Below the pieces are notes generated by a model, which was not told the DNA's origin, made no database searches, and saw nothing but the letters and a program-made list of their open reading frames with translations. A DNA stretch of 32,000 nt, from the NCBI RefSeq assembly GCF_000829235.1, contig NZ_AP012549.1:2010001-2042000 (forward strand), in the 5' to 3' direction. Position numbers and translations under genes: made by a program. Shown piece by piece: positions 3,680-31,791 of this stretch (positions within the stretch are counted from its first letter, which is position 1; each line of letters begins with the position of its first letter). The stretch comes from a cyanobacterium endosymbiont of Epithemia turgida isolate EtSB Lake Yunoko. GTDB taxonomy: Bacteria; Cyanobacteriota; Cyanobacteriia; Cyanobacteriales; Microcystaceae.

Positions 3680-4111
3680 GTTGAAGAAATCGTTAACGCG
3701 GTTAGCCACTGGTGGTGTGAAAAGAAAAGTCATGATGACAGAACCCTCCTATTCAGATACAACACGGAAATCTCAGTTAAATTATCCTTCCAAACTTCAC
3801 TTCATGTAAAAACTCCTTCCTAGCATCACCACCGTGTCTTGATGTAGGGGGCAATTGTCTTACTAGGACTAGGTACAAGTTTAATCTCTCGATAGGTTTT
3901 CTTACAGTGGAACCTAACTCCTTGGGTAGAAACTAAACTCAGTAATTTTAAAAATCGTCCAGTTCATTTAGGAGCCCTTAAGTATTTTTCATTAGGTCAA
4001 GTGCGTTTTGGCAAAAGTCAGATTGCTAAAACTGCTGCTGATTCTGCTCAAGTTACTATGGCTGCTTTGGACGTAGCCTACGATCCTCTCACATTAGAGA
4101 TTATCGGGTAA
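3680..4111 (+). pseudogene. Possible N-terminal remnant of a TamB/DUF490-like translocation-assembly protein; the rest of the gene is missing or decayed
   Basis: A single frame reads '...GAIVLLGLGTSLISR*VFLQWNLTPWVETKLSNFKNRPVHLGALKYFSLGQVRFGKSQIAKTAADSAQVTMAALDVAYDPLTLEIIG*' and contains several in-frame stops. A hydrophobic anchor followed by an 'L.P.VE..LS....RPV.LG....FSL...RFG.S.I' pattern matches my recollection of cyanobacterial TamB-like N-termini. This has not been verified by alignment. Confidence 0.35.
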
Positions 4112-4923
4112 GTCGCCGCTTACAGGGTTAAATAACTATGACAGAACAGGATTTTTGCCAATGTCTGGAAGGACTGTTGCCTCTTTACCAACAGATTACT
4201 AAGTAAATATAACAGTGATCGCCGTGAGAAATTATGCCAATGGTCATCATTGTCGAGAGTCTAATCTTTCATTGCAACCTAAGTCTATTAGATGGAGATA
4301 ACGTTATACTCTAACTCTTTTTACTATTCCTTATGGGGCATTAATTACCTAAACTATAAAAAAATTATTAGTATGTAACAACAACATTTAATATTGCCAT
4401 ATGGCTAATAGGAGTATCTGTTTACAACCTGTTGTGATAAACTTGGGACGGGACGCAAGAATGGCAGCCACTTTATATATTGACACTTTATATATTAAGT
4501 TAAATTGTCAGCCTAGGAATGTTTTTGTTAGAGAAATTAAAGAAACATTATTAACATATTTTTTTGCTCCTCCTGGAATGATTCCTTTATTTAATTTAGT
4601 TCCTCCACATCCCCAATGGTTGTATTAGCAACAGTATTATTTAGATTATCTAGAGGATTACCTCATTACAGGGAATTATCCTTGTTCTAGTTTTGTTATT
4701 TAACCATTGTTAAATAGTCAGCTTGATCGAGTATATTTTTACCGCCATAATACTCAAAAAATTTTTTTACTATTACTGGCTCTTTCAAAAGATAAGAAAA
4801 ACTTATAAATTAATAATATTTTTCTAAAATTAATAAACAGTTAAGTAATTTTTAACCAAAAACATTATCAGTATAATGACGTTTTAATTATTCAGACAGT
4901 TGGTTACTATTATAGTAATTTTT

Positions 4924-6650: not shown

Positions 6651-7298
6651 ATGAACAAATCAGATCCGAATATAACTTTACGATTACTGCCCTTTTTTGC
6701 GGGAGTACTTGGCAGTATTCTCTTATTAATTAACCGTTTTACTACATTAACCTTAACGGCATCTCAGTCTCGTTCCGATGTTGTAGGAGTTATTCTCAAT
6801 GGGGTCTTGATTTTAGTTGGGTTAATCTGGCATAAAGTTCAACCACGATCACCTGATGCTGTTACTCTTGTTGGAGAACAAGGTTTCGAATTTGCCCCCT
6901 ATTTACCAGAAGAAATCAAAAAAGAACTTGCTTGGGCCTCCTATTTAGTATTAACTAATACCGTTACCAAATCTTTGGTGGTTTACTATCAGGGAGTGGT
7001 GGTGTTGAGACGAGGGATTTTAGGCATTAACTCTCAAGTAATTCCGGGCAATATTTTAGAAAAAGTTTTGGCAAGTAAAAAGCCAGTTTATCTAGTGAAT
7101 TTGCCTCTTTATCCAGGACGCGTCGAGTTTGATTATCTCCCCGAAAATACTCAGGGAGTAATATGTCAACCTTTGGGAAACCAAGGGGTTTTGATTTTGG
7201 GGGCAAATGTCCCCCGCAGTTATACTAAACAGGACGAAAATTGGATCAAAGGAATCGCTGATAAATTAGCAGATACCTTACAAACCTATTTGCAATAG
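6651..7298 (+). CDS. Conserved cyanobacterial membrane protein, probably DUF2930 / CCB2-CCB4-like (cytochrome b6f cofactor assembly family)
   Basis: 215-aa ORF with two N-terminal hydrophobic helices. The motifs 'SQSRSDVVGV', 'ELAWASYL', 'LYPGRVEFDYLPENTQGVICQPLG' and 'LGANVPRSYTKQDENWI' match the family as I recall it. The family assignment is from memory. Confidence 0.5.
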   Translation: MNKSDPNITLRLLPFFAGVLGSILLLINRFTTLTLTASQSRSDVVGVILNGVLILVGLIWHKVQPRSPDAVTLVGEQGFEFAPYLPEEIKKELAWASYLVLTNTVTKSLVVYYQGVVVLRRGILGINSQVIPGNILEKVLASKKPVYLVNLPLYPGRVEFDYLPENTQGVICQPLGNQGVLILGANVPRSYTKQDENWIKGIADKLADTLQTYLQ

Positions 7299-8723: not shown

Positions 8724-10661
8724 ATGGTTTCTAATTCTTTTATCTTCCTTAAACTTTCTCGTCGTGCTGTCTTGAAACTTTTAGGGATTGCATTACCTGC
8801 AGCAATATTAGGCTATTCTCGTTTTAGTAAACCCCAACCTTTTATCTATCAACAAGACAGCTTAAGTTTACCTTCTCGACCAACTAAACCTAAATCTGTG
8901 GTCATAATTGGTGCAGGTTTAGCGGGATTAGCTTGTGCTTACGAATTAAGTCAACGAGGGTTTCAAGTAACTTTATTAGAGAGAGCACCCAATCTAGGAG
9001 GTAAAATTGCCAGTTGGACGGTTCAAGTAGGTAGTGAAACTTTCAAAATGGAACATGGATTTCACGGTTTTTTTCCCCAGTATTATAACCTGAATAGTAT
9101 TGCTCAAGAATTATCCATTACAAATAATTTTCAATCCTTAAAGTTTTATTCTGTTGTCTTTAAAGACAATATTTATAGACCAGAAAATTTTTATCCAAGT
9201 CACTCAACTTTTCCCTGGAATATTATTGATCTTTGGTTTTGGTCTTCTAATCGTCTTCAATGGGGAATTAACTTACTAAAACCCTCTCACTGGAAAGTTT
9301 TTAAAGCTATTACAGGAGTTCAAATTCCTAAAATTTTTACCAAATTTGACAATATCTCTGTAACTGAATGGGTAAAACAAGGTTTTCCTAAAGGAATTCA
9401 TGATTTATATTTTCTTCCCTTTGCTAAGGCTACTTTAAATGCACCTGATATTTTAAGTGCAGGAGAATTATTACAATTTTTCCATTTTTATTTTTTTGGG
9501 AATCCTGAAGGTTTAGCTTTTAGTGGAACTAAAGATGATATGGGAACCAGTTTAGTTCAACCTTTTATTAAAGCAATTCAAAAGAATGGGGGACAAGTTA
9601 TTTCTGAAGGAATTATTAATAAAATTATCTGTAACAACGAAAAAATTATTTCTTTAACTTATCAACAGGGAAACTCTCAAACTGAAGTTCCTTTTTGGGT
9701 AGAACGTAATAATTATTTGACTAATAGTCATGTAACATACTATGGTGCAGGTGATCGGGTTTTCATTGCTACTTCAAATCATCAAGAAGCAATTTCTTTA
9801 ACTTGTACTCACCAAGGTTGTACAGTAAGTAGACAAACGGATGGAACCTTTTTATGTCCCTGTCATGGAACATTATATGATGACAAAGGCAAAGTATTTG
9901 GAGGTCCTGCAAAACAAAATTTACCCCGTTATAAAATAAACCAGCAGAGGGAAACATCAATCCTGTTAATTAGTGTTTCTACTTTATCTTCAAAAAAAGA
10001 TACAATGCTGGAAGCAGATTATTATGTTATGGCTACTGATGTTCCTGGAATTAAGCAGTTATGGGAGTTGATAGAAGGAGATATTAATCCAAAAGTTACT
10101 CAACAAGTAGTAACTTTAACAACAGCTGATCCGTTTGCTGTTGGACGATTTTGGTTTGACCAAGATTTTGACTGGAACTATAGTGATTTTACCTCTGTTT
10201 CGGGATATAAACTAACCGATAGTATTACTCTTTATCACCATATTCAAAATCAGTTTATTGAGTGGTCAAAACACACAGGAGGAAGTGTAATAGAATTACA
10301 TGCTTATTGTTATAAGGAAAAGGATTTTCCAAATCAAGAATCTCTCTTGAGAGCGTTTGAACAGGAATTATATGAAATTGTTCCAAAATTAAAACAGGCT
10401 AACTGCTTAAATAAGGAATTGGTTAACCAGAATAATTTTTCAGGTTATCCTCCTAACAGTTATAATAATCGTCCAAAAACTACAACAGAAATTAAAAATT
10501 TATACTTTGCTGGAGATTGGGTTAAGATGCCTTTTCCTTGTAGTTTAATGGAACGTGCAGTCAGTAGTGGACTTTTGGCGGCTAATGAAATTTTACATCA
10601 AGAAGGGTTACAAAGACGTACATTGTTAACAGTTGCACCATCAGGGTTAGTTAAAATCTAG
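8724..10661 (+). CDS. FAD-dependent amine-oxidase/phytoene-desaturase-like oxidoreductase with an N-terminal twin-arginine signal and an internal Rieske [2Fe-2S] domain
   Basis: 645-aa ORF. It has a Tat-like 'LSRRAVLKLLG' followed by a hydrophobic stretch. The Rossmann motif is 'VVIIGAGLAGLACAYEL...LLE...GGK'. The Rieske box 'CTHQGCTVSRQTDGTFLCPCHGTLYD' (nt 9804-9881) is inserted between the two halves of the oxidase fold. The C-terminal part carries 'YFAGDW'. Confidence 0.8.
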   Translation: MVSNSFIFLKLSRRAVLKLLGIALPAAILGYSRFSKPQPFIYQQDSLSLPSRPTKPKSVVIIGAGLAGLACAYELSQRGFQVTLLERAPNLGGKIASWTVQVGSETFKMEHGFHGFFPQYYNLNSIAQELSITNNFQSLKFYSVVFKDNIYRPENFYPSHSTFPWNIIDLWFWSSNRLQWGINLLKPSHWKVFKAITGVQIPKIFTKFDNISVTEWVKQGFPKGIHDLYFLPFAKATLNAPDILSAGELLQFFHFYFFGNPEGLAFSGTKDDMGTSLVQPFIKAIQKNGGQVISEGIINKIICNNEKIISLTYQQGNSQTEVPFWVERNNYLTNSHVTYYGAGDRVFIATSNHQEAISLTCTHQGCTVSRQTDGTFLCPCHGTLYDDKGKVFGGPAKQNLPRYKINQQRETSILLISVSTLSSKKDTMLEADYYVMATDVPGIKQLWELIEGDINPKVTQQVVTLTTADPFAVGRFWFDQDFDWNYSDFTSVSGYKLTDSITLYHHIQNQFIEWSKHTGGSVIELHAYCYKEKDFPNQESLLRAFEQELYEIVPKLKQANCLNKELVNQNNFSGYPPNSYNNRPKTTTEIKNLYFAGDWVKMPFPCSLMERAVSSGLLAANEILHQEGLQRRTLLTVAPSGLVKI

Positions 10662-11517: not shown

Positions 11518-12033
11518 ATGGAAGTTATGAAGACAGTTGATTTTCTCCTAATTATTCATCTAGTGACTGCTGTTATTTTTGTTTTTCCTTTAATTGGTAT
11601 TGTGTCTTATTTTTCTGGGAAAACTTATCAAAGACGTTTACAAACTTTAAATAAGAATTCGAATAAGAAAAAAAGTAAATTTTTTCTATTAGTTGGACGA
11701 GATCATGTTTTTATGGGACGTTGGTTATCAGGTTTGGTAGTTGAAGTTAGTTTGTTAGGATTAGCATATCCCATTGGGAAAAACATTATTAACAATCGAC
11801 TTTGGTAAAATAATGTATTTTTCTTTCTTTTTATTTTAACAATGTTTGTAGTAACCATTGCTGCTTTGGTAATTCTTCAAAAAACACGACAGAAACATTA
11901 GCGAGGAGTTTTTGCAACTTTAACTGGAATAGGACTAATAATTTTAGGATTTAAAGATAGGGTATTCTGTCGAGATAATCAATGGTACATGTCTCATTTC
12001 TATTTTGGTATTTTAGCTGCTTTATTGCTCTAA
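11518..12033 (+). pseudogene. Multi-pass membrane protein interrupted by two in-frame stop codons (family not assigned; DUF4079-like layout)
   Basis: The 96-aa ORF (11518-11808) continues in the same frame through TAA 11806-11808 and TAG 11899-11901 to TAA 12031-12033. The continuation stays hydrophobic and helix-like: '...NNVFFFLFILTMFVVTIAALVILQKTRQKH*RGVFATLTGIGLIILGF...HFYFGILAALLL*'. Confidence 0.5.
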
Positions 12034-12258
12034 TGGTTGGCGGCGCAGTATTCACATTATTTTAAATTGTCTCACTTTGCTATTATTTATAGCGCAAAGC
12101 ATAACAGGGATTAGAGATTTATTAGAAATTGGTAAATATAAACTCGGAGAATAATTTTGAACTAAATTAAGAAAAATTATTCAGGACAGAACGATTTTAC
12201 GAGGTAAAAATTTAACTTAAATTCAGATATAGTTTTGGATATAAGACATTAGGTTAGA

Positions 12259-21891: not shown

Positions 21892-24172
21892 AAAAATTAA
21901 TTGAAGATAAAGGCAAGTTTTTACCTTATTTTAATCAAGCTAATTGTTTCTTTCAATTTTTTCATGGCGGTTTAATTGTCCCATAACTAGTTAATTTAAT
22001 CAGATGGTTATCTGTCTGTAGGTTGACTGAGTCGACAGTTTCATTTTGCAAAGTATAAGTAGCGACATCAACACCAATAGTGAATGTAATCTCATTTTGC
22101 CCTATCTTAGAGGTTTAGCTGTAATCACGATTCATCTGTTAACAGGTTTTAAAGCTATTTATGTATTGGTTTTAAGTACAGTAGCCATAATTTATTCTAC
22201 TCCAAATTTTACTAAACAATCAACTGTTTGTAGAAAGGTTATATCATCATTCAACCATTAGAGTAGACTTGAACATCTTTATACAGCTACGTCTTCTAAG
22301 AGCTTAGTCTCTGGTATATTTTTTTATTGTTTAATAGATGCTTAGAGTTGTGTTGGATAGATTAGTATTAAATTGAGATAAATAGATAAATTTAAATAAG
22401 GGTTTTCCTGAACAATGGTTTTTAAAGAACAATCGTTAGATACCAGATTATCTAAAAATTAGCTGACATAATTAGAAGAGTAAGAACTATCATTTACTTA
22501 TAATTTACAACTACTTTTAAATAAACTAGGAATAGTGTTTTTTTTAAAAAAAAAAGATTACCGCAATAACAATAATTATATTCTAATCAACCTCTATATT
22601 AATTACTCTAATCTAATATAAAGGTTGATTTATTTGTGTACATTTAAATCTACTTATTTAATTTTAATATAATAAAAACTAACTTATTACTCAAAACCAT
22701 TAATACAAGCAAACTAATTAATATAATTATCGACATAATAGCTAAGTGATTAATATCAATAATTTCATTTTTTCTAGACTAGCTATGGTTAATTTTTAAT
22801 AAATAAAGACTAAAACTATTATTAACTACCAATTTATAGTACTTGAGCTATAAGAGGCATAATTTCTAAATATATTTACATATAAAATAGCATAGATGCA
22901 AATGATTAACCACCATAAGAGTTTAAAATAAGGTTAACTTATTTAACGTAGAAAGACTTACTAAAAATAGATTATAGTATATATTTGTAGGTATTTATAT
23001 CAATGACTATTATTGATATTTTAATAAATTTATCCTTTTTTAAAATTATTTAATTTTAAATTTTGTAATTTTTCTTTGCCATAAGCAATAATCTGTTTTT
23101 GGTGATCTATTGAGATAGTATCAACTGTTAAAGCGGGTCAATTCTTATTGAGTAATTTGTTGGTTTTAGTTAATACAAGAAAAATATAAATAATTCCAAC
23201 AAACTTTTCCTGAAAACCATTAAAAATAAGCACTTTAATACCAGTGTTGGGAATATTAGGAACGCTATTAGAGTAAACCTCAGTTATTTTGTGATAGCGC
23301 TGATAGGTGCGTGTTTTACTATTTGAGAACTCAGTTAAATTGCTCCTCATAAGAAGCAATCCTTGATGGTTAACCTGATGATAATTTTGGATCATATTTA
23401 CCTGACTATCGGTGATGTTAACATACGAAAAGTTTAGAATAAATATATATTTAATTAGTTTATTTTTGGTTTATAGCATAGATAAATTGATATCAATTTA
23501 TTTGCTTATTTTTTGTTGAAAACCTAGAATTAAATGCCCCTAAAACTAATGTTAGATTTAGTATGGTAAAATATTTTAATATTGTTTTAATTTCGCGTTT
23601 AAACTATCATTTAAACATAATAAGCCATGTTTGTAAACTAGAAATCGGTAAAATTTAACCGTAAAATATTTCAATTGATGGAAACCAGATAAATATCAAA
23701 TACAGTCCAATACAGGCTATAAAGTATAACTAAATTAGGATAAAAACACACTAACAAAGCAAAAAAACCGTCTTTTTCGTAAAAAAGAAAAGATAATAGC
23801 ATAGGGATATTCTCACAATAGACTAAGTACAGATATTACTAATAAGTACTATGATAAGTTTTGAAAAAATACTTTAATTTTTAAGAATAGTTCAATCTGC
23901 GACTGTCTCAAGCATAAAATCTATCCACAAAAACGGTAGCTTAAAATAATTATCTAAAAATTTTACTATTAACAAGAAACCAAGACCTGAATGATACCTT
24001 CATTTAACCCTAAGTCTAGATAATTTTGTCCTAATCTCTTATAGCTAGCGCATATTTATAGTTTTTTTGTTATTTTTTAGAGGTAAATCATTGCTATCAA
24101 GAAAAAGACTGAGATCACCAATTTTTTAAACAGTCAACTTCATCCATTATTACTGGTATAAAAATTGCTAAA

Positions 24173-25783: not shown

Positions 25784-26469
25784 ATGAACACTATCGACGA
25801 TAAAGCAATTGTTAAAAAATATTTCAATGCCATTGGGTTTGACCGTTGGCGCAGGATTTATGGAGATGGAGAGGTGAATAAAATTCAAGAGGACATTCGT
25901 CGCGTCCATCAACAAACTATTGATACTGTGGTAGACTGGCTAAAGGCTGAAGAAAATATCAGTAGTTTGTCTATTTGTGACGCGGGGTGTGGTGTGGGGA
26001 GTTTAAGCATTCCCTTAGCTCAAACAGGGGCTAGAGTCCTTGCCAGTGATATTTCCGCGAAATGATGGAAGAAGCCGCCCAAAGAGCCCCAAAATCCCTG
26101 TAAGATGCCAGTAATATTGTCTTTACAGTTCAAGACTTACAAAAATTGTAGGGTCAATATCAGACCGTCATTTGTATTAATGCTCTGATTCATTATCCTA
26201 CCGAAGATACAGCTAAAATGATTGCCCATCTTGCCTCGTTAGCAACGTCTCGTCTAATTCTTATTTTTGCTTCTAAAAACCTTTGTTTAACTATCCTTAA
26301 AAAAATCGGCGAATTCTTTCCAGAACCTGGTATAACTACCCGTGTCTCTCAGCATAAAGAAAAGGATGTCATTGCCATTCTAGAAAACAATGGTCTAAGA
26401 GTTCAACGCGAAGCTATGACCAGTACACGTTTTTATTACTCTCGAATTCTAGAGACGACCCGAAGTTAA
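25784..26469 (+). pseudogene. chlM: Mg-protoporphyrin IX methyltransferase, inactivated by one frameshift and two nonsense codons
   Basis: The N-terminal fragment (25784-26065) carries 'KKYFNAIGFDRWRRIYGDGEVN' and 'CDAGCGVGSLSIPLAQTGA'. The C-terminal fragment (26218-26469) carries 'MIAHLASLA...FASK...LKKIGEFFP...[12 protein letters not shown]'. The two are in different frames. The switch maps to the A-run at 26060-26062, and the second frame contains TAA 26101-26103 and TAG 26149-26151. Confidence 0.9.
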
Positions 26470-28096: not shown

Positions 28097-28247
28097 AGAT
28101 TATCCCCAGTTAATTCTTGTTTTCTGAAAGAAGATTTTGCTTGGAGAATCGACATGACCATTGAGGGGCAATCTATGCATTGTTCTATAGAATAATAACA
28201 ATTGAACTCAATCAAGATCAATATTCTATTAACCTTGACTGTAGCTG

Positions 28248-28358
28248 TCAGTCCATTTTGAAGGCAAACCAAACCGCCCACAAGACAATAGACAGAAATA
28301 CCAATGTCCCGACAGTAATAGCGAAAGTGTGAAAAGCATCAGAGTCAATAAGGGTCAT
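28248..28358 (-). CDS. Candidate 36-aa single-pass membrane peptide (unassigned)
   Basis: Hand translation of the minus strand gives 'MTLIDSDAFHTFAITVGTLVFLSIVLWAVWFAFKMD*'. It has one clean hydrophobic helix and a local GC content like the intact genes. It is below the ORF-track length cut-off, has no clear SD and no family recognised. Confidence 0.3.
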   Translation of the reverse strand: MTLIDSDAFHTFAITVGTLVFLSIVLWAVWFAFKMD

Positions 28359-30054
28359 CTTGAAAAGCTTAGGGGTGTTTTGGTTTAGACAATCCAAAAG
28401 GGCATCTCAAGCTATTGTGTAGATACCTTGTATTCCTTTATTATATCCGTTGTTTCAACTATATTTCCCAAGTTACTTATTTTCTCTAGTTTTGATCGAT
28501 TGTTCGAGTTATTCTTAACCCAACTTGTAGGGTTAGTACAATAAAATGCTTCATGGAGAAGGTTTTAAAAGAGATAGTCTGATTACACCTAAATGGCTGT
28601 ATTTTATACACTCCATGTAATAAAATACAAATGAGTGAGTTGTTTGGGCTTTCCAAAATATCTGAGTCTTTCCTAATTCGGACATAGTCTGTAATTGAAT
28701 ATTTCCGAATGCCTCAAACTGCCTAGTCTTCAACCTTTTTACGAGCATAACCATCTTGCCAGTCACTGCTAATGATTTTCACCACAAATGTAGTCCAAAC
28801 TGTCTAAAGTTAAAATAGACTGGTTATTATAGTCAAACCGAAGTGCTTCTTGACTAAGTGCATCTTGATCAACAACGGCAACATCAGTCTGACATGAGTC
28901 ACAATTAAATTTGCAGAACTCAAATCAGTTTCATAAGTGTAGTAAGACTACTTTAGCATGTTTAACAAACTCTTCAGCTACAACGTCACTACCTGTCTTT
29001 ATTTCTTTCCAGAAACATATTTTAAAAGTTTAATTAACTTCATTTTTAAAGAAAAATATATTGTGATAGCTAAATTTTTTAGATAGGCTGGTATCTAATT
29101 ATCTCTTTTTTAAAACTATTTTTATATCTTACATTGACTTTAAGTTTACCTACTTAAATTCTCTTGCTTCAGTTTTGTAGATCACAATAATTTATTGCAA
29201 GTTTCTTTATATTATTCCCATTCAACTTATAATATTTTATTGATAGTTCTAATTGAATATCAATTTTTTTGAATATATAAATACTAGCTTACTAGAATTA
29301 TGGTAATTTACACTAATAGTTTAAATATTTAAACTATTGCAGTTTTTTATCAATTTAATCCTGGTTGTAAAAGAAAAATTACGTAACAATATAGTAAAAA
29401 AGTGAATAAAAATGGCATACGAAATAATTCTTTGTTTTGCGAGAAATATTTTAGACTCTCTAAGTAATATATGCTTTTCATATTATTGTTGTAGACCAAA
29501 CAAATCTTTGTGTAATGTTCTAATTTTTTCAAATTCTAATGTAGGGGTTTTAAAATATCCCGTTATGCTCCTCATGATATCAGTATTTATAAGCGTTGAT
29601 AATGCACTTGTATCACCATAATAAATTTAAATTCAATAGCACGCAGCAATTTCACTCTATATTTCCCATTTCTGTCTGTTATAGATAGTAAATATTCAGT
29701 TAACCTAAAATCTTGAACGTACGTGGTTTCTCGTCCAGTAAATTTCATAACTGTTATTTTTGCTGCCGGTAGAATGACCAAATTCCCCTTATTGTCAATA
29801 TTGCAGATCTACATATTTTTATTTAGTTGACTTTAAATTTTGAGTAAGTATTAAATGACAATCTCCTCATCCTATTCAGTCTATGTCCACTATCAGTAGA
29901 AGTTGTTATAAAATTCCCGAAGCTATTTTACAGACAGCGATATACTAGGCAATGGTGTTATAGAAAATCTTGACAAGATAGCCAGCAGACAAAGATCATC
30001 AGATACGTCAAGTATCAATCAACAGACTTAAACCTATAACTTGTATCAATCAAG

Positions 30055-31173
30055 ATGAACACAGGAATCGACCTACAAGGCAGTTTTATTCAATCTCTCA
30101 AACAAATGGGAATTTCTGATGGGCTAGCAAAAGCCTTCTGGATTCCCTTGCCCTCATTTTTAATGATTATTGGAGCTACCGTCGGCGTATTAGTGGTGGT
30201 ATGGTTAGAACGAAAAATTTCTGCCGCTGCTCAACAACGTATTGGACCTGAATATGCAGGTCCTTTAGGGGTTCTTCAACCTGTGGCTGATGGCATTAAA
30301 TTGGTATTTAAAGAAGACGTCATCCCCGCTAAAGCAGACCCCTTGTTATTTACCCTAGGTCCAGTGTTAGTGGTACTTCCAGTGTTTGTTTCTTACCTAA
30401 TTGTTCCCTTTGGGCAAAATTTGGTGATTACAGACCTAAATGTGGGTATTTTATTCTGGATTGCCTTATCCAGTATTGCCCCCATTGGCTTACTAATGTC
30501 AGGATATGCTTCTAATAACAAATATTCCCTTCTTGGAGGGTTAAGGGCAGCAGCACAGTCCATTAGTTATGAAATTCCCTTGGCTTTATCCGTTTTAGCA
30601 ATTGTCATGATGTCTAATAGTCTCAGCACTATTGACATTGTGCATCAACAGTCAGGATATGGCATTTTAGGCTGGAATATTTGGCGGCAACCTGTAGGAT
30701 GTATTGTCTTTTGGATTGCGGCGTTGGCTGAATGTGAACGACTTCCTTTTGACCTTCCTGAAGCAGAAGAAGAAATCGTAGCAGGGTATCAGACTGAATA
30801 TTCAGGGATGAAGTTTGGTTTATTCTATTTAGGCTCATACGTCAACTTAGTTTTGTCGGCCTTGGTTTTTGCTATTCTTTACTTAGGGGGGTGGGAATTT
30901 CCAGTCCCTCTTGAAAAACTGGCAGGTTGGATTGGGGTAAACGAGACAAATTCCTGGTTACAGGTAATTACCGCTTCCTTGGGAATCATGATGACCGTAC
31001 TTAAAGCCTATCTCTTGATTTTCCTCGCTGTTTTAATCCGGTGGACAGTTCCCAGGGTTCGTATTGACCAATTATTGGATTTAGGTTGGAAATTCTTACT
31101 TCCTGTTTCTTTGGTTAACCTTTTATTGACGGCAGCCCTAAAACTTACCTTTCCTGTCGCTTTTGGCGGCTAA
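30055..31173 (+). CDS. ndhA: NAD(P)H-quinone oxidoreductase subunit 1 (NDH-1 subunit A, NuoH homologue)
   Basis: 372-aa polytopic ORF with '[30 protein letters not shown]', '[27 protein letters not shown]' and '[15 protein letters not shown]', the canonical NdhA/NuoH signatures. Confidence 0.95.
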
Positions 31174-31209
31174 TCTCTTTTTTTGTTTATAACTCACCAA
31201 TCAAGTGTC

Positions 31210-31791
31210 ATGTTTAACCTACTCAAACAAGTCAGCGATTACGCTAAAGGGAGTGTTGAGGCAGCTAGATATATTGGTCAAGGGCTATCTGTTACCTTTG
31301 ACCATATGCGTCGCCGTCCAATTACGGTACAATACCCCTATGAAAAACTTATTCCCTCAGAACGATTCCGGGGAAGAATTCACTTTGAATTTGATAAGTG
31401 TATTTCCTGTGAAGTCTGTGTTCGGGTATGTCCAATTAACCTTCCGGTAGTAGATTGGGAATTTAACAAAACTGTTAAGAAGAAAGAACTCAAACACTAC
31501 AGTATAGATTTTGGAGTTTGCATTTTTTGCGGTAATTGTGTTGAGTATTGTCCCACCAATTGTTTATCCATGACGGAAGAATATGAACTAGCGGCCTACG
31601 ACCGTCACGAACTCAATTATGATAATGTTGCTCTCGGACGGTTGCCTTATAAAGTAACCCAAGATCCAATAGTAACTCCCTTACGAGAGTTAGGATACTT
31701 ACCTAAAGGGGTGTTTGAACCTCATGATTTACCCTTAGGAAGTCAACGGGCAGGAAAGCGTCCTGAAGAAATTGTAAAAGAGAGCGAGTAA
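31210..31791 (+). CDS. ndhI: NAD(P)H-quinone oxidoreductase subunit I (NDH-1, 2x[4Fe-4S])
   Basis: '[14 protein letters not shown]...[24 protein letters not shown]' and two ferredoxin boxes, '[12 protein letters not shown]' and '[12 protein letters not shown]'. The start is set at ATG 31210. The 9-codon upstream extension from 31183 in the ORF track does not match the conserved N-terminus. Confidence 0.95.

Follow-up and report, generated by a model that had tools for sequence, protein, structure and literature searches.

A probable carotenoid chi-ring synthase (CruE) with a twin-arginine motif and an inserted Rieske domain, under purifying selection in a cyanobacterial endosymbiont without photosystems

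The locus and the architecture of its product

We analyzed a stretch of 32,000 nucleotides (hereafter the window; contig NZ_AP012549.1, positions 2,010,001 to 2,042,000) from the genome of the cyanobacterial endosymbiont, or spheroid body, of Epithemia turgida (EtSB). The gene considered here is an uninterrupted ORF with an ATG start (Table 1). Its product is 100% identical to an NCBI protein of the E. turgida endosymbiont whose record carries only the name 'FAD-dependent oxidoreductase', and homologues that are 65-68% identical to it are called 'isorenieratene synthase' and 'carotenoid phi-ring/chi-ring synthase' by JGI. The cyanobacterial homologues form a single tight cluster of at least 56% identity, the next relatives being at most 36% identical.

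Table 1 Features of the probable cruE gene and its product (coordinates are those of the window).
Feature	Residues	Coordinates	Strand	Evidence
cruE, ETSB-1389 (probable carotenoid chi-ring synthase / beta-carotene desaturase-methyltransferase)	1-645	8724..10661	+	ORF, 645 aa
Twin-arginine (Tat) consensus SRRAVLK	12-18	8757..8777	+	conserved in homologues
h-region or possible signal anchor, AVLKLLGIALPAAILGY	15-31	8766..8816	+	Kyte-Doolittle, AF2
FAD-binding Rossmann beta-alpha-beta, GxGxxG (G63-G68)	58-90	8895..8993	+	Pfam, AF2
Inserted block (Rieske domain and linkers)	~316-426	9669..10001	+	gap in Rieske-less CrtU relatives
Rieske [2Fe-2S] domain core	345-403	9756..9932	+	Pfam PF00355, 1.5e-9
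Rieske box I CTHQGC (ligands C361, H363; disulfide C366)	361-366	9804..9821	+	conservation
Rieske box II CPCHGTLYD (ligands C378, H381; disulfide C380)	378-386	9855..9881	+	conservation
C-terminal FAD-binding motif YFAGDW	594-599	10503..10520	+	conservation, alignment with 5mog

The N-terminus agrees with the Tat-substrate consensus S/T-R-R-x-F-L-K followed by a moderately hydrophobic h-region. S12, R13, R14 and K18 are invariant among 29 cyanobacterial homologues, and the arginine pair is invariant in an alignment of 52 sequences from cyanobacteria and green sulfur bacteria. An RR motif was found in 118 of 120 cyanobacterial and 117 of 119 green sulfur bacterial homologues, the exceptions being N-terminally truncated gene calls. 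The mean Kyte-Doolittle value of the h-region is 1.87 over 17 residues and 1.45 over 19, the latter below the typical transmembrane threshold, and AF2 predicted a low-confidence helix at residues 13-32. A conserved GYSRFxKPQP motif (Y31, S32, R33, and P39 invariant) follows the h-region; no AxA cleavage motif or signal-peptidase site was evident in the N-terminus.

The Rossmann motif, IIGAGLAGL (residues 61-69), lies within a region (residues 58-130) that is matched by NAD_binding_8, DAO, FAD_binding_2, and other Pfam families; AF2 modelled the beta-alpha-beta unit (residues 58-90) with pLDDT > 90. Over the whole protein, Pfam matches above the gathering scores include Amino_oxidase in two stretches (1.1e-30) and NAD_binding_8 (1.7e-17), as well as the Rieske family. 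With only the 29 close cyanobacterial homologues as input, AF2 reached a pLDDT of 56; once sequences from green sulfur bacteria were added, the value was 83 (pTM 0.85). The best structural match of this model is rice phytoene desaturase (PDS/CrtP; 5mog; Foldseek E 1e-28, target-normalised TM-score 0.81), which is also the best sequence match (E 9e-24). In the alignment with 5mog, YFAGDW falls on the C-terminal FAD segment of the rice enzyme, and its residues A596, G597, D598, and W599 are invariant in the alignments of 29 and 52 sequences; the segment ADYYVMATDVPG occupies residues 431-442. The product of the window ORF has both the FAD-binding Rossmann motif and a phytoene-desaturase/amine-oxidase fold.

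The Rieske domain interrupts this fold. Relatives of 499-513 residues (P0138, P0139, P0141, P0145, P0147, and P0165) are gapped across the inserted block, and in a representative search the Rieske-less relatives matched the protein in two stretches, residues 47-292 and 430-643. A preliminary description of the locus, made from the sequence alone, had put the insert at nucleotides 9690-9974 (residues 323-417), which is about the right position but slightly narrow, as the alignment indicates a block of ~110 residues. The best NCBIfam matches of the inserted domain are PetC, the proteobacterial bc1 Rieske protein, and the arsenite oxidase small subunit, and its best PDB sequence matches are the cytochrome b6f Rieske chains 5cxm and 3azc. 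All four cluster ligands and both disulfide cysteines of a bc1/b6f-type Rieske centre are present, with C361, H363, G365, C366, C378, P379, C380, and H381 invariant among the 52 cyanobacterial and green sulfur bacterial sequences. The combination of Tat motif, FAD fold, and inserted Rieske domain with disulfide cysteines, as first described, was thus borne out by the Pfam, NCBIfam, and PDB matches and by the alignment. A scan of a genome collection gave 80 loci, none of them from Synechocystis 6803 or Synechococcus 7002, and at every one the ORF was uninterrupted and encoded the RR motif as well as the Rieske motif.

One position of box II is peculiar to the endosymbiont lineage: all five endosymbiont sequences have Thr (Thr383) directly after CPCHG, where other homologues usually have Ala. 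Compared with the pattern CPCHGSxY, whose Ser and Tyr are hydrogen-bond donors indicative of a high midpoint potential, EtSB has CPCHGTLY, the cyanobacterial homologues mostly have Ala, with Phe in place of Tyr in some, and green sulfur bacteria have CPCHAG.

Assignment to CruE and the retained carotenoid pathway

In an orthologue table published in 2026, ETSB-1389 (645 aa) appears as cruE, 'carotenoid chi-ring synthase', together with Cyan8802-0534 (647 aa) and sll0254, and cruE is listed for all six rhopalodiacean endosymbionts. The neighbours of cruE in Rippkaea, ggt upstream and a gene for a 443-aa hypothetical protein downstream, agree with this table; a tblastn search of the window detected no remnant of either. 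The published table, the Rippkaea neighbours, and the clustering of the homologues all point to orthology with the genetically characterised Sll0254 and A1248. The family named in the preliminary description was therefore right as to Sll0254 and wrong as to 'CruH-type' enzymes: CruH is a separate EtSB gene (ETSB-0639, 357 aa; orthologue of sll1869 and A2246), whereas the 645-aa protein of the window pairs with sll0254.

Papers on the synechoxanthin pathway treat sll0254/A1248 as CruE, a beta-carotene desaturase/methyltransferase. The enzyme acts on the beta-ionone rings of beta-carotene, each of which loses four hydrogens and undergoes a methyl shift, to yield the aromatic renierapurpurin, which is then oxidised by CruH to synechoxanthin. 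As quoted in later papers, this function was assigned from gene knock-outs in Synechococcus 7002, and the cruE knock-out is reported still to make myxoxanthophyll and beta-carotene, only the chi-ring carotenoids being missing. No in-vitro reconstitution of CruE was found in the literature. Judged from orthology and domain content, the window ORF very probably encodes CruE with a role in the synechoxanthin pathway. The enzyme and the pathway are already known; the name is corrected from the generic 'FAD-dependent oxidoreductase' to CruE.

The orthologue table lists crtE, crtB, crtP, crtQ, crtH, Z-ISO, cruA, crtR, cruE, and cruH in all six endosymbionts, and in the same genomes the genes for chlorophyll, phylloquinone, phycobilisomes, and carboxysomes are broken or lost. 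By the annotation of this table, the EtSB genome encodes both the supply of substrate for CruE and its downstream partner; EtSB crtB is listed as 269 aa versus 310 aa elsewhere. The endosymbionts also keep cytochrome b6f with its PetC subunit, cytochrome oxidases, and a protein of the TatA/E family. Papers on the endosymbiont genomes do not mention carotenoids in their main texts, nor do the supplements of two endosymbiont papers.

Selection at the locus and competing readings

The gene is under purifying selection and is flanked on both sides by pseudogenes. Between endosymbionts, dN/dS of cruE is 0.18-0.28 with bootstrap upper limits no higher than 0.36, confirming the selection for which the preliminary description had proposed this check; the range for retained neighbours is 0.06-0.31. 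Within cruE, the values are 0.22-0.41 for the Rieske block taken by itself (all upper limits < 1) and 0.18-0.27 for the substrate domain (residues 51-315), which shows no accelerated change. Directly downstream of cruE lies a DUF4079 pseudogene (11527-12148) with an in-frame stop and a frameshift, remnants of TamB and of an FAD-oxidoreductase lie upstream (3732-4832), and chlM is broken into two fragments (25784-26065 and 26218-26469). Around this locus the genome is decaying and chlM is split, as had been claimed, but the dead photosystem I factor named alongside chlM was not located, ORFs of at least 40 aa in 19.3-30.1 kb giving no such hit.

In such surroundings cruE might be a functionless relic that has not yet been struck by an inactivating mutation. 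The EtSB genome is full of pseudogenes, the related RgSB genome retains unbroken ORFs of the dead chlorophyll pathway, and spheroid bodies are described as lacking prominent pigmentation. Against this stand a dN/dS that lies far below 1 for all pairs of endosymbionts and near that of retained housekeeping neighbours, an ORF that is unbroken in the six genomes of the table and in the five endosymbiont sequences read (dS up to 0.47), the conservation of every cofactor ligand, and the unbroken state of the partner gene cruH and of the entire upstream pathway. We consider a relic improbable.

The proposal of Mohamed and Vermaas that Sll0254 is 'CrtLdiox', a lycopene cyclase/dioxygenase, is slightly less probable still. 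The assignment is published, a 2015 paper still cites the lycopene cyclase/oxygenase report, and a Rieske centre is indeed present. However, the protein has no mononuclear-iron oxygenase domain, and its Rieske domain belongs to the bc1/b6f/arsenite-oxidase class and not to that of the oxygenases. One paper reports no evidence for direct formation of beta-carotene by Sll0254, the synechoxanthin-pathway papers attribute synechoxanthin synthesis to CruE and cyclisation to CruA/CruP, and cruA is retained in the endosymbionts as the cyclase. The homologues of green sulfur bacteria and of purple sulfur bacteria also carry annotations as aromatising desaturases. The statement that the reported functions of this family disagree therefore describes a historical disagreement, echoed in the 2015 citation.

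Recruitment of CruE in the endosymbiont to a different membrane substrate, for example a quinone or some other isoprenoid, so that it would serve respiration as a lumenal dehydrogenase and make no aromatic carotenoids, could be read from the lineage-specific Thr383 beside a cluster ligand and from the importance of respiration for nitrogenase protection, but it is just as improbable given the 72% identity to the free-living Rippkaea orthologue, the substrate domain without accelerated change, and the retention alongside cruE of cruH, whose only known substrate is the product of CruE.

Taken as a whole, a functional CruE in the spheroid body, with its pathway role and a putative export and electron relay, is the explanation that we regard as likely. 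The gene survives in this N2-fixing, non-photosynthetic endosymbiont of a diatom because the whole carotenoid pathway is kept. The preliminary description had allowed that a settled function of the family might account trivially for the retention of the gene, and this is largely what we found: the function accepted for the family was assigned genetically, so the retention is mostly ordinary, being explained by the kept pathway and by nothing special to cruE. The role unconnected with light harvesting that the preliminary description suggested is in keeping with a carotenoid pathway retained without photosystems. The pathway most likely supplies the retained cytochrome b6f and NDH-1 complexes with structural carotenoids and gives antioxidant or membrane protection within an illuminated, O2-producing host. 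That an endosymbiont without either photosystem, chlorophyll, or phycobilisomes maintains under selection every step towards an aromatic carotenoid speaks for functions of carotenoids outside light harvesting, and EtSB offers a natural test case for synechoxanthin function.

Predicted export and electron transfer

The twin-arginine motif suggests that CruE is Tat-exported and has a lumenal or periplasmic topology, which we consider somewhat probable. In Synechococcus 7002, labelling with PsbU-APEX2 targeted to the lumen enriched the orthologue A1248, although SignalP 5 calls no signal for it. Of the Tat machinery, the orthologue table gives for EtSB ETSB-1011, a member of the TatA/E family, and it also lists PetC, which is a Tat substrate; a second tatA copy is absent, and TatC was not found among the table rows listed. 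That the Rieske cluster forms the electron outlet of CruE has, from the domain arrangement, about an even chance. The self-contained electron relay suggested in the preliminary description is likewise hypothetical. We found no discussion in the literature of either the probable lumenal/periplasmic topology of CruE or its Rieske centre as a one-electron outlet.

Under this proposal, CruE would fold with FAD and the [2Fe-2S] cluster in the cytoplasm, be exported in the folded state by the Tat pathway via its SRRAVLK signal, and remain at the lumenal/periplasmic face of the membrane, where it would draw beta-carotene out of the bilayer. The built-in bc-type Rieske cluster would then hand on the electrons of FADH2 singly, the acceptor being either the quinone pool or, in the lumen, plastocyanin or a c-type cytochrome. 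The loss of one copy of petJ (cytochrome c6) in all endosymbionts counts against the proposed acceptor.

Known systems share parts of this arrangement. Cyanobacterial CruE (SYNPCC7002_A1248, Sll0254) is of the same length class (650 aa versus 645 aa in EtSB) and, as in EtSB, combines Tat motif, FAD fold, and inserted Rieske domain, with cruA upstream and cruH downstream in the pathway; EtSB differs in lacking photosystems and in having Thr for the usual Ala after CPCHG. The three-part architecture is also found, at ~31-34% identity, in CrtU of green sulfur bacteria (gamma-/beta-carotene desaturase, leading to chlorobactene and isorenieratene), such as the 'gamma-carotene desaturase' of Pelodictyon, and in homologues from the purple sulfur bacterium Thiohalocapsa. 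These proteins have the N-terminal RR and a Rieske motif (CTHMGC...CPCH(A/G)G) at the identical insertion point, but CrtU belongs to another clade with anaerobic hosts, has Ala or Gly instead of Thr after CPCH, and makes the phi-ring through a different methyl shift. The short CrtU-type relatives (~500 aa, JGI 'isorenieratene synthase') have homologous FAD and substrate domains at ~28-31% identity, whereas they lack the Rieske insert and, mostly, the Tat motif, and must therefore shed their electrons by another route.

PDS likewise carries out FAD-dependent carotenoid dehydrogenation at the membrane, passing electrons straight to plastoquinone; it differs from CruE in substrate and reaction and in having neither a Rieske domain nor a Tat signal. 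AioB, the small subunit of arsenite oxidase, and PetC are the nearest relatives of the inserted domain and have in common with it CxHxGC...CxCH and the disulfide cysteines. AioB and PetC each reach the periplasmic or lumenal side as a folded Fe-S protein by means of an N-terminal twin-arginine signal and transfer single electrons there; they are separate subunits of larger complexes, whereas the Rieske module of CruE is fused within a flavoprotein. The structural matches also indicate a common flavin amine-oxidase fold with the nicotine oxidoreductase NicA2 of Pseudomonas putida. NicA2, a flavoenzyme that the Tat pathway exports to the periplasm, naturally gives its electrons to a c-type cytochrome and not to O2, and it therefore provides a working precedent for the topology proposed for CruE, although it has no Rieske domain, a soluble alkaloid substrate, and a place in an unrelated pathway.

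In its widest form the proposal is tentative and, in our estimate, rather unlikely to hold in full: CruE/CrtU of phototrophs would be Tat-exported and face the lumen or periplasm, with the Rieske cluster turning the two-electron flavin chemistry of aromatisation into one-electron transfers to soluble c-type cytochromes, plastocyanin, or quinones, and the lumenal branch of spheroid bodies, in which Thr has replaced Ala next to the cluster, would be retained for synechoxanthin. If this were true, carotenoid aromatisation would be wired into the respiratory or photosynthetic chain, and the synechoxanthin of spheroid bodies would be a light-independent membrane antioxidant protecting respiration and nitrogenase in an oxygen-producing host. 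EC 1.3.99.39/40 leave the acceptor unspecified, and the Tat and Rieske architecture may suggest where this acceptor, and the membrane side of the reaction, should be sought.

A twin-arginine signal is thus joined to a built-in Rieske centre in the ring-aromatising desaturases of both cyanobacteria and green sulfur bacteria, enzymes whose products serve as geological biomarkers, as well as in the homologues from Thiohalocapsa. Among the family representatives the two features occur together (both in 10, Rieske insert only in 2, Tat motif only in 5, neither in 47; Fisher p = 1e-6).

Identity and domain organization of CruE

The cruE product is 100% identical to an NCBI protein entitled 'FAD-dependent oxidoreductase [cyanobacterium endosymbiont of Epithemia turgida]', and homologues with 61-72% identity are found throughout the cyanobacteria; those that a source names specifically appear under 'carotenoid phi-ring synthase / chi-ring synthase' or 'isorenieratene synthase'. 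When species-representative genomes were scanned, no fewer than 240 of 600 pattern matches were confirmed as relatives and, among the matches listed, all 80 of the 80 loci retained combine an intact ORF with an RR motif and a Rieske motif.

The preliminary description had read the protein as a flavoprotein with a Tat signal and an inserted Rieske domain, and each motif that it quoted is present in the intact 645-aa frame. Its proposed domain composition was borne out by Pfam, in which Amino_oxidase (1.1e-30, in two stretches), NAD_binding_8 (1.7e-17) and Rieske (1.5e-9, aa 345-403) all match above curated cut-offs. In the NCBIfam ranking, the flavoprotein part is nearest to HpnE, phytoene desaturase and zeta-carotene desaturase, and the Rieske part to cytochrome b6f PetC, the proteobacterial bc1 Rieske protein and the arsenite oxidase small subunit. 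A PDB sequence search agrees with this ranking (rice phytoene desaturase 5mog, 9e-24; b6f Rieske chains from 9e-11). An AF2 model built from 29 close homologues reached a pLDDT of 56, and one built from 52 sequences including green sulfur bacteria a pLDDT of 83 and a pTM of 0.85, with an N-terminal helix at aa 13-32 modeled at low confidence. In structure, too, rice phytoene desaturase is the best match (target-normalised TM-score 0.81), ahead of flavoenzymes of the amine-oxidase fold, NicA2 among them.

Features of cruE and of the surrounding window (nt are window positions)
Feature	Position	Strand	Remarks
TamB remnant	3732-4096	+	~120 N-terminal codons of 1846-aa gene, frameshifted; upstream of cruE
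FAD-dependent oxidoreductase remnant	4155-4832	+	~220 codons of 579-aa gene; upstream of cruE
CCB2/CCB4-family cytochrome b6f cofactor-assembly factor	6651-7298	+	intact
cruE	8724-10661	+	one unbroken ORF, ATG start, 645 aa
Tat motif SRRAVLK	aa 12-18, nt 8757-8777	+	followed by hydrophobic stretch AVLKLLGIALPAAILGY
Rossmann motif GxGxxG	aa 63-68	+	in cruE
Rieske motif CTHQGC	aa 361-366	+	in cruE
Rieske motif CPCHGTLYD	aa 378-386	+	in cruE
ADYYVMATDVPG then YFAGDW		+	C-terminal to Rieske motifs of cruE
DUF4079 pseudogene	11527-12148	+	directly downstream of cruE; in-frame stop and frameshift
chlM (Mg-protoporphyrin IX methyltransferase), N-terminal methyltransferase fragment	25784-26065	+	
chlM, C-terminal fragment (Mg-por_mtran_C)	26218-26469	+	
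NDH-1 subunits NdhA and NdhI	30055-31791	+	intact

The literature describes Sll0254 of Synechocystis as CruE 'enclosing a Rieske 2Fe-2S center', so that its combination of FAD and Rieske cofactors had been noted previously, and pairs it with a 'beta-carotene desaturase', A1248 of Synechococcus 7002. Renierapurpurin is formed from beta-carotene by CruE, a reaction reported from knock-outs in Synechococcus 7002, and CruH then turns it into synechoxanthin by hydroxylation and oxidation. The relationship to Sll0254 suspected in the preliminary description is upheld by a 2026 orthologue table (PMC12903740), where 'cruE, carotenoid chi-ring synthase' includes Cyan8802-0534 (647 aa), cce_2233, ETSB-1389 (645 aa) and sll0254 (650 aa). 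Its 'CruH-type' label was wrong: the name CruH belongs to another protein, of 357 aa (ETSB-0639 = sll1869); as EtSB has its own CruH, this identity is ruled out for the window gene. Fold, Rieske insert, orthology and pathway context all place the gene in the CruE family, with a predicted chi-ring synthase activity. The finding is therefore already known, concerning a known enzyme family and a gene previously identified through its entry in that table.

Co-occurrence of Tat signal and Rieske block in the CruE/CrtU family

When 1.84 billion cluster representatives were searched, the matches formed three groups: a single tight cyanobacterial cluster (at least 56% identity), full-length relatives at 29-36% identity in which the Rieske block is likewise present, and many ~500-aa proteins matching aa 47-292 and 430-643 only. 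In the alignment, the extra block spans aa ~316-426, between the strands '...IISLTYQQG' and 'ADYYVMATDV'; the short relatives make just a tight turn at this point. Rieske-bearing relatives include CrtU of green sulfur bacteria, e.g. a 'gamma-carotene desaturase' of Pelodictyon and an 'Amine oxidase:Rieske region' protein of Chlorobium ferrooxidans, as well as proteins of the purple sulfur bacterium Thiohalocapsa; these open with an RR motif, for instance MNRRNFLGRF or MQRRRFIRNA.

Of the 64 representatives with a single module, 10 combine a Rieske with a Tat motif, 2 carry Rieske only, 5 Tat only and 47 neither (Fisher p = 1e-6). Cyanobacterial homologues carry the RR motif in 118 of 120 cases and green sulfur bacterial ones in 117 of 119, the exceptions being truncated gene calls. 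Across the 52-sequence alignment covering both phyla, no substitution occurs at the four cluster ligands, at the two disulfide cysteines or in the RR pair.

A few relatives, among the family representatives P0160, P0175, P0195 and P0262, and P0186 and P0207, break this pairing. Some ~560-aa relatives carry a clear RR signal without the Rieske motif, two Rieske-bearing relatives start right at the Rossmann motif and have no signal, and long multi-domain relatives (780-1280 aa) also contain the Rieske motif.

Retention of cruE in a decaying genome

The window belongs to the spheroid body of Epithemia turgida (EtSB), a non-photosynthetic, N2-fixing diatom endosymbiont that retains thylakoids. Genome decay, as had been proposed, is visible locally, with pseudogenes or remnants on both sides of cruE. 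Residues 1-162 of the DUF4079 pseudogene share a frame that contains a stop (ORF end 11808), and residues 182-221 lie in another; an unbroken copy (219-222 aa) exists in the Rhopalodia gibba endosymbiont and in free-living SU2, and the copies of two fetched loci, L003 and L004, are broken as well. The interval from nnr to the CCB2/CCB4 gene contains the TamB and FAD-oxidoreductase remnants (3732-4832, forward strand), and other endosymbiont genomes keep both genes intact. Broken into two pieces, chlM is dead, as first described; a 'PSI factor' pseudogene, also claimed, was not found among ORFs of at least 40 aa at 19.3-30.1 kb of the window. Two long stretches (21900-24170 and 28100-30050; G+C ~0.26-0.31), in which no ORF has a Pfam match, are presumably fully eroded genes. 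In Rippkaea, cruE is flanked by ggt and a 443-aa hypothetical gene, as the fetched locus and the PMC12903740 table agree; no remnant of either was detected in the window.

Intact neighbours include CCB2/CCB4, hisB, guaA, panB, ndhA and ndhI, and the intact CCB2/CCB4, NdhA and NdhI are consistent with a respiratory chain retained on the thylakoids. The cytochrome b6f and NDH-1 complexes themselves bind carotenoids.

Codon alignments of cruE with three other endosymbiont genomes and with free-living SU2 and Rippkaea were analyzed by the Nei-Gojobori method. The dN/dS of 0.18-0.28 between endosymbionts (bootstrap upper limits at most 0.36) demonstrates the purifying selection that the preliminary description had anticipated; pairs with free-living relatives gave 0.14-0.17 and seven retained neighbour genes 0.06-0.31. 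The Rieske block alone (aa 316-426) gave 0.22-0.41 for endosymbiont pairs, with upper limits below 1, and 0.31 for the free-living pair. Selection on cruE is clearly purifying, with mild relaxation.

According to the PMC12903740 table, crtE, crtB, crtP, crtQ, crtH, Z-ISO, cruA, crtR, cruE and cruH are present in 6 of 6 endosymbiont genomes; cruE is therefore no isolated survivor, being retained as a single step of a wholly kept carotenoid pathway. The same source lists chlorophyll, phylloquinone, phycobilisome, carboxysome and RuBisCO genes as broken or lost in the six endosymbionts. The maintenance of an aromatic-carotenoid pathway by a non-photosynthetic organism is of modest residual interest. 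These endosymbionts fix nitrogen beside an O2-making host and have kept or gained defences against oxidants, for example Ni-SOD and an extra terminal oxidase, and it is reasonable to infer that their carotenoids may act as antioxidants or in the membrane, although prominent pigmentation is said to be lacking in spheroid bodies.

In that table, crtQ, crtH, cruA, cruE and cruH are all kept in the photosystem-less rhopalodiacean endosymbionts and are all listed as absent from UCYN-A, which keeps photosystem I. EtSB crtB is listed at 269 aa versus 310 aa in other genomes, and may therefore be truncated.

Proposed topology and electron route

CruE is placed in the thylakoid membrane of Synechocystis by the literature, and A1248 was enriched by lumen-directed APEX2, SignalP calling no signal. 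We found no literature on the Tat motif or on the role of the Rieske centre in CrtU/CruE, nor on carotenoids in spheroid bodies, which is weak evidence given that the search lacked most subscription papers. The topology and electron acceptor of CruE are also of modest interest. Cofactor-loaded CruE would be exported by Tat and then either anchored by an uncleaved signal, as PetC, or released at the lumenal/periplasmic face. Hydride equivalents of the beta-ring would go to the flavin, with four electrons for each ring and eight for each beta-carotene, and the Rieske cluster would pass single electrons to a lumenal carrier or quinone. Working precedents for such a route are arsenite oxidase, which is exported by Tat and whose Rieske centre passes electrons out to cytochrome c or azurin, and NicA2, a flavoenzyme of CruE-type fold that is likewise exported by Tat and reduces a cytochrome c. 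Against this mechanism, the h-region of CruE is only moderately hydrophobic, one tatA copy is listed as absent from EtSB, and one cytochrome c6 gene as lost from all endosymbionts.

Thr383 (codon 9864-9866) comes right after CPCHG in 5 of 5 endosymbiont CruE sequences; the same position is Ala in SU2 and Rippkaea, the nearest free-living relatives, and in most cyanobacteria. Because bc1/b6f Rieske proteins have at the equivalent position a Ser whose hydrogen bond to the cluster raises the potential, the Ala-to-Thr substitution might have shifted the cluster potential following the loss of photosynthesis.
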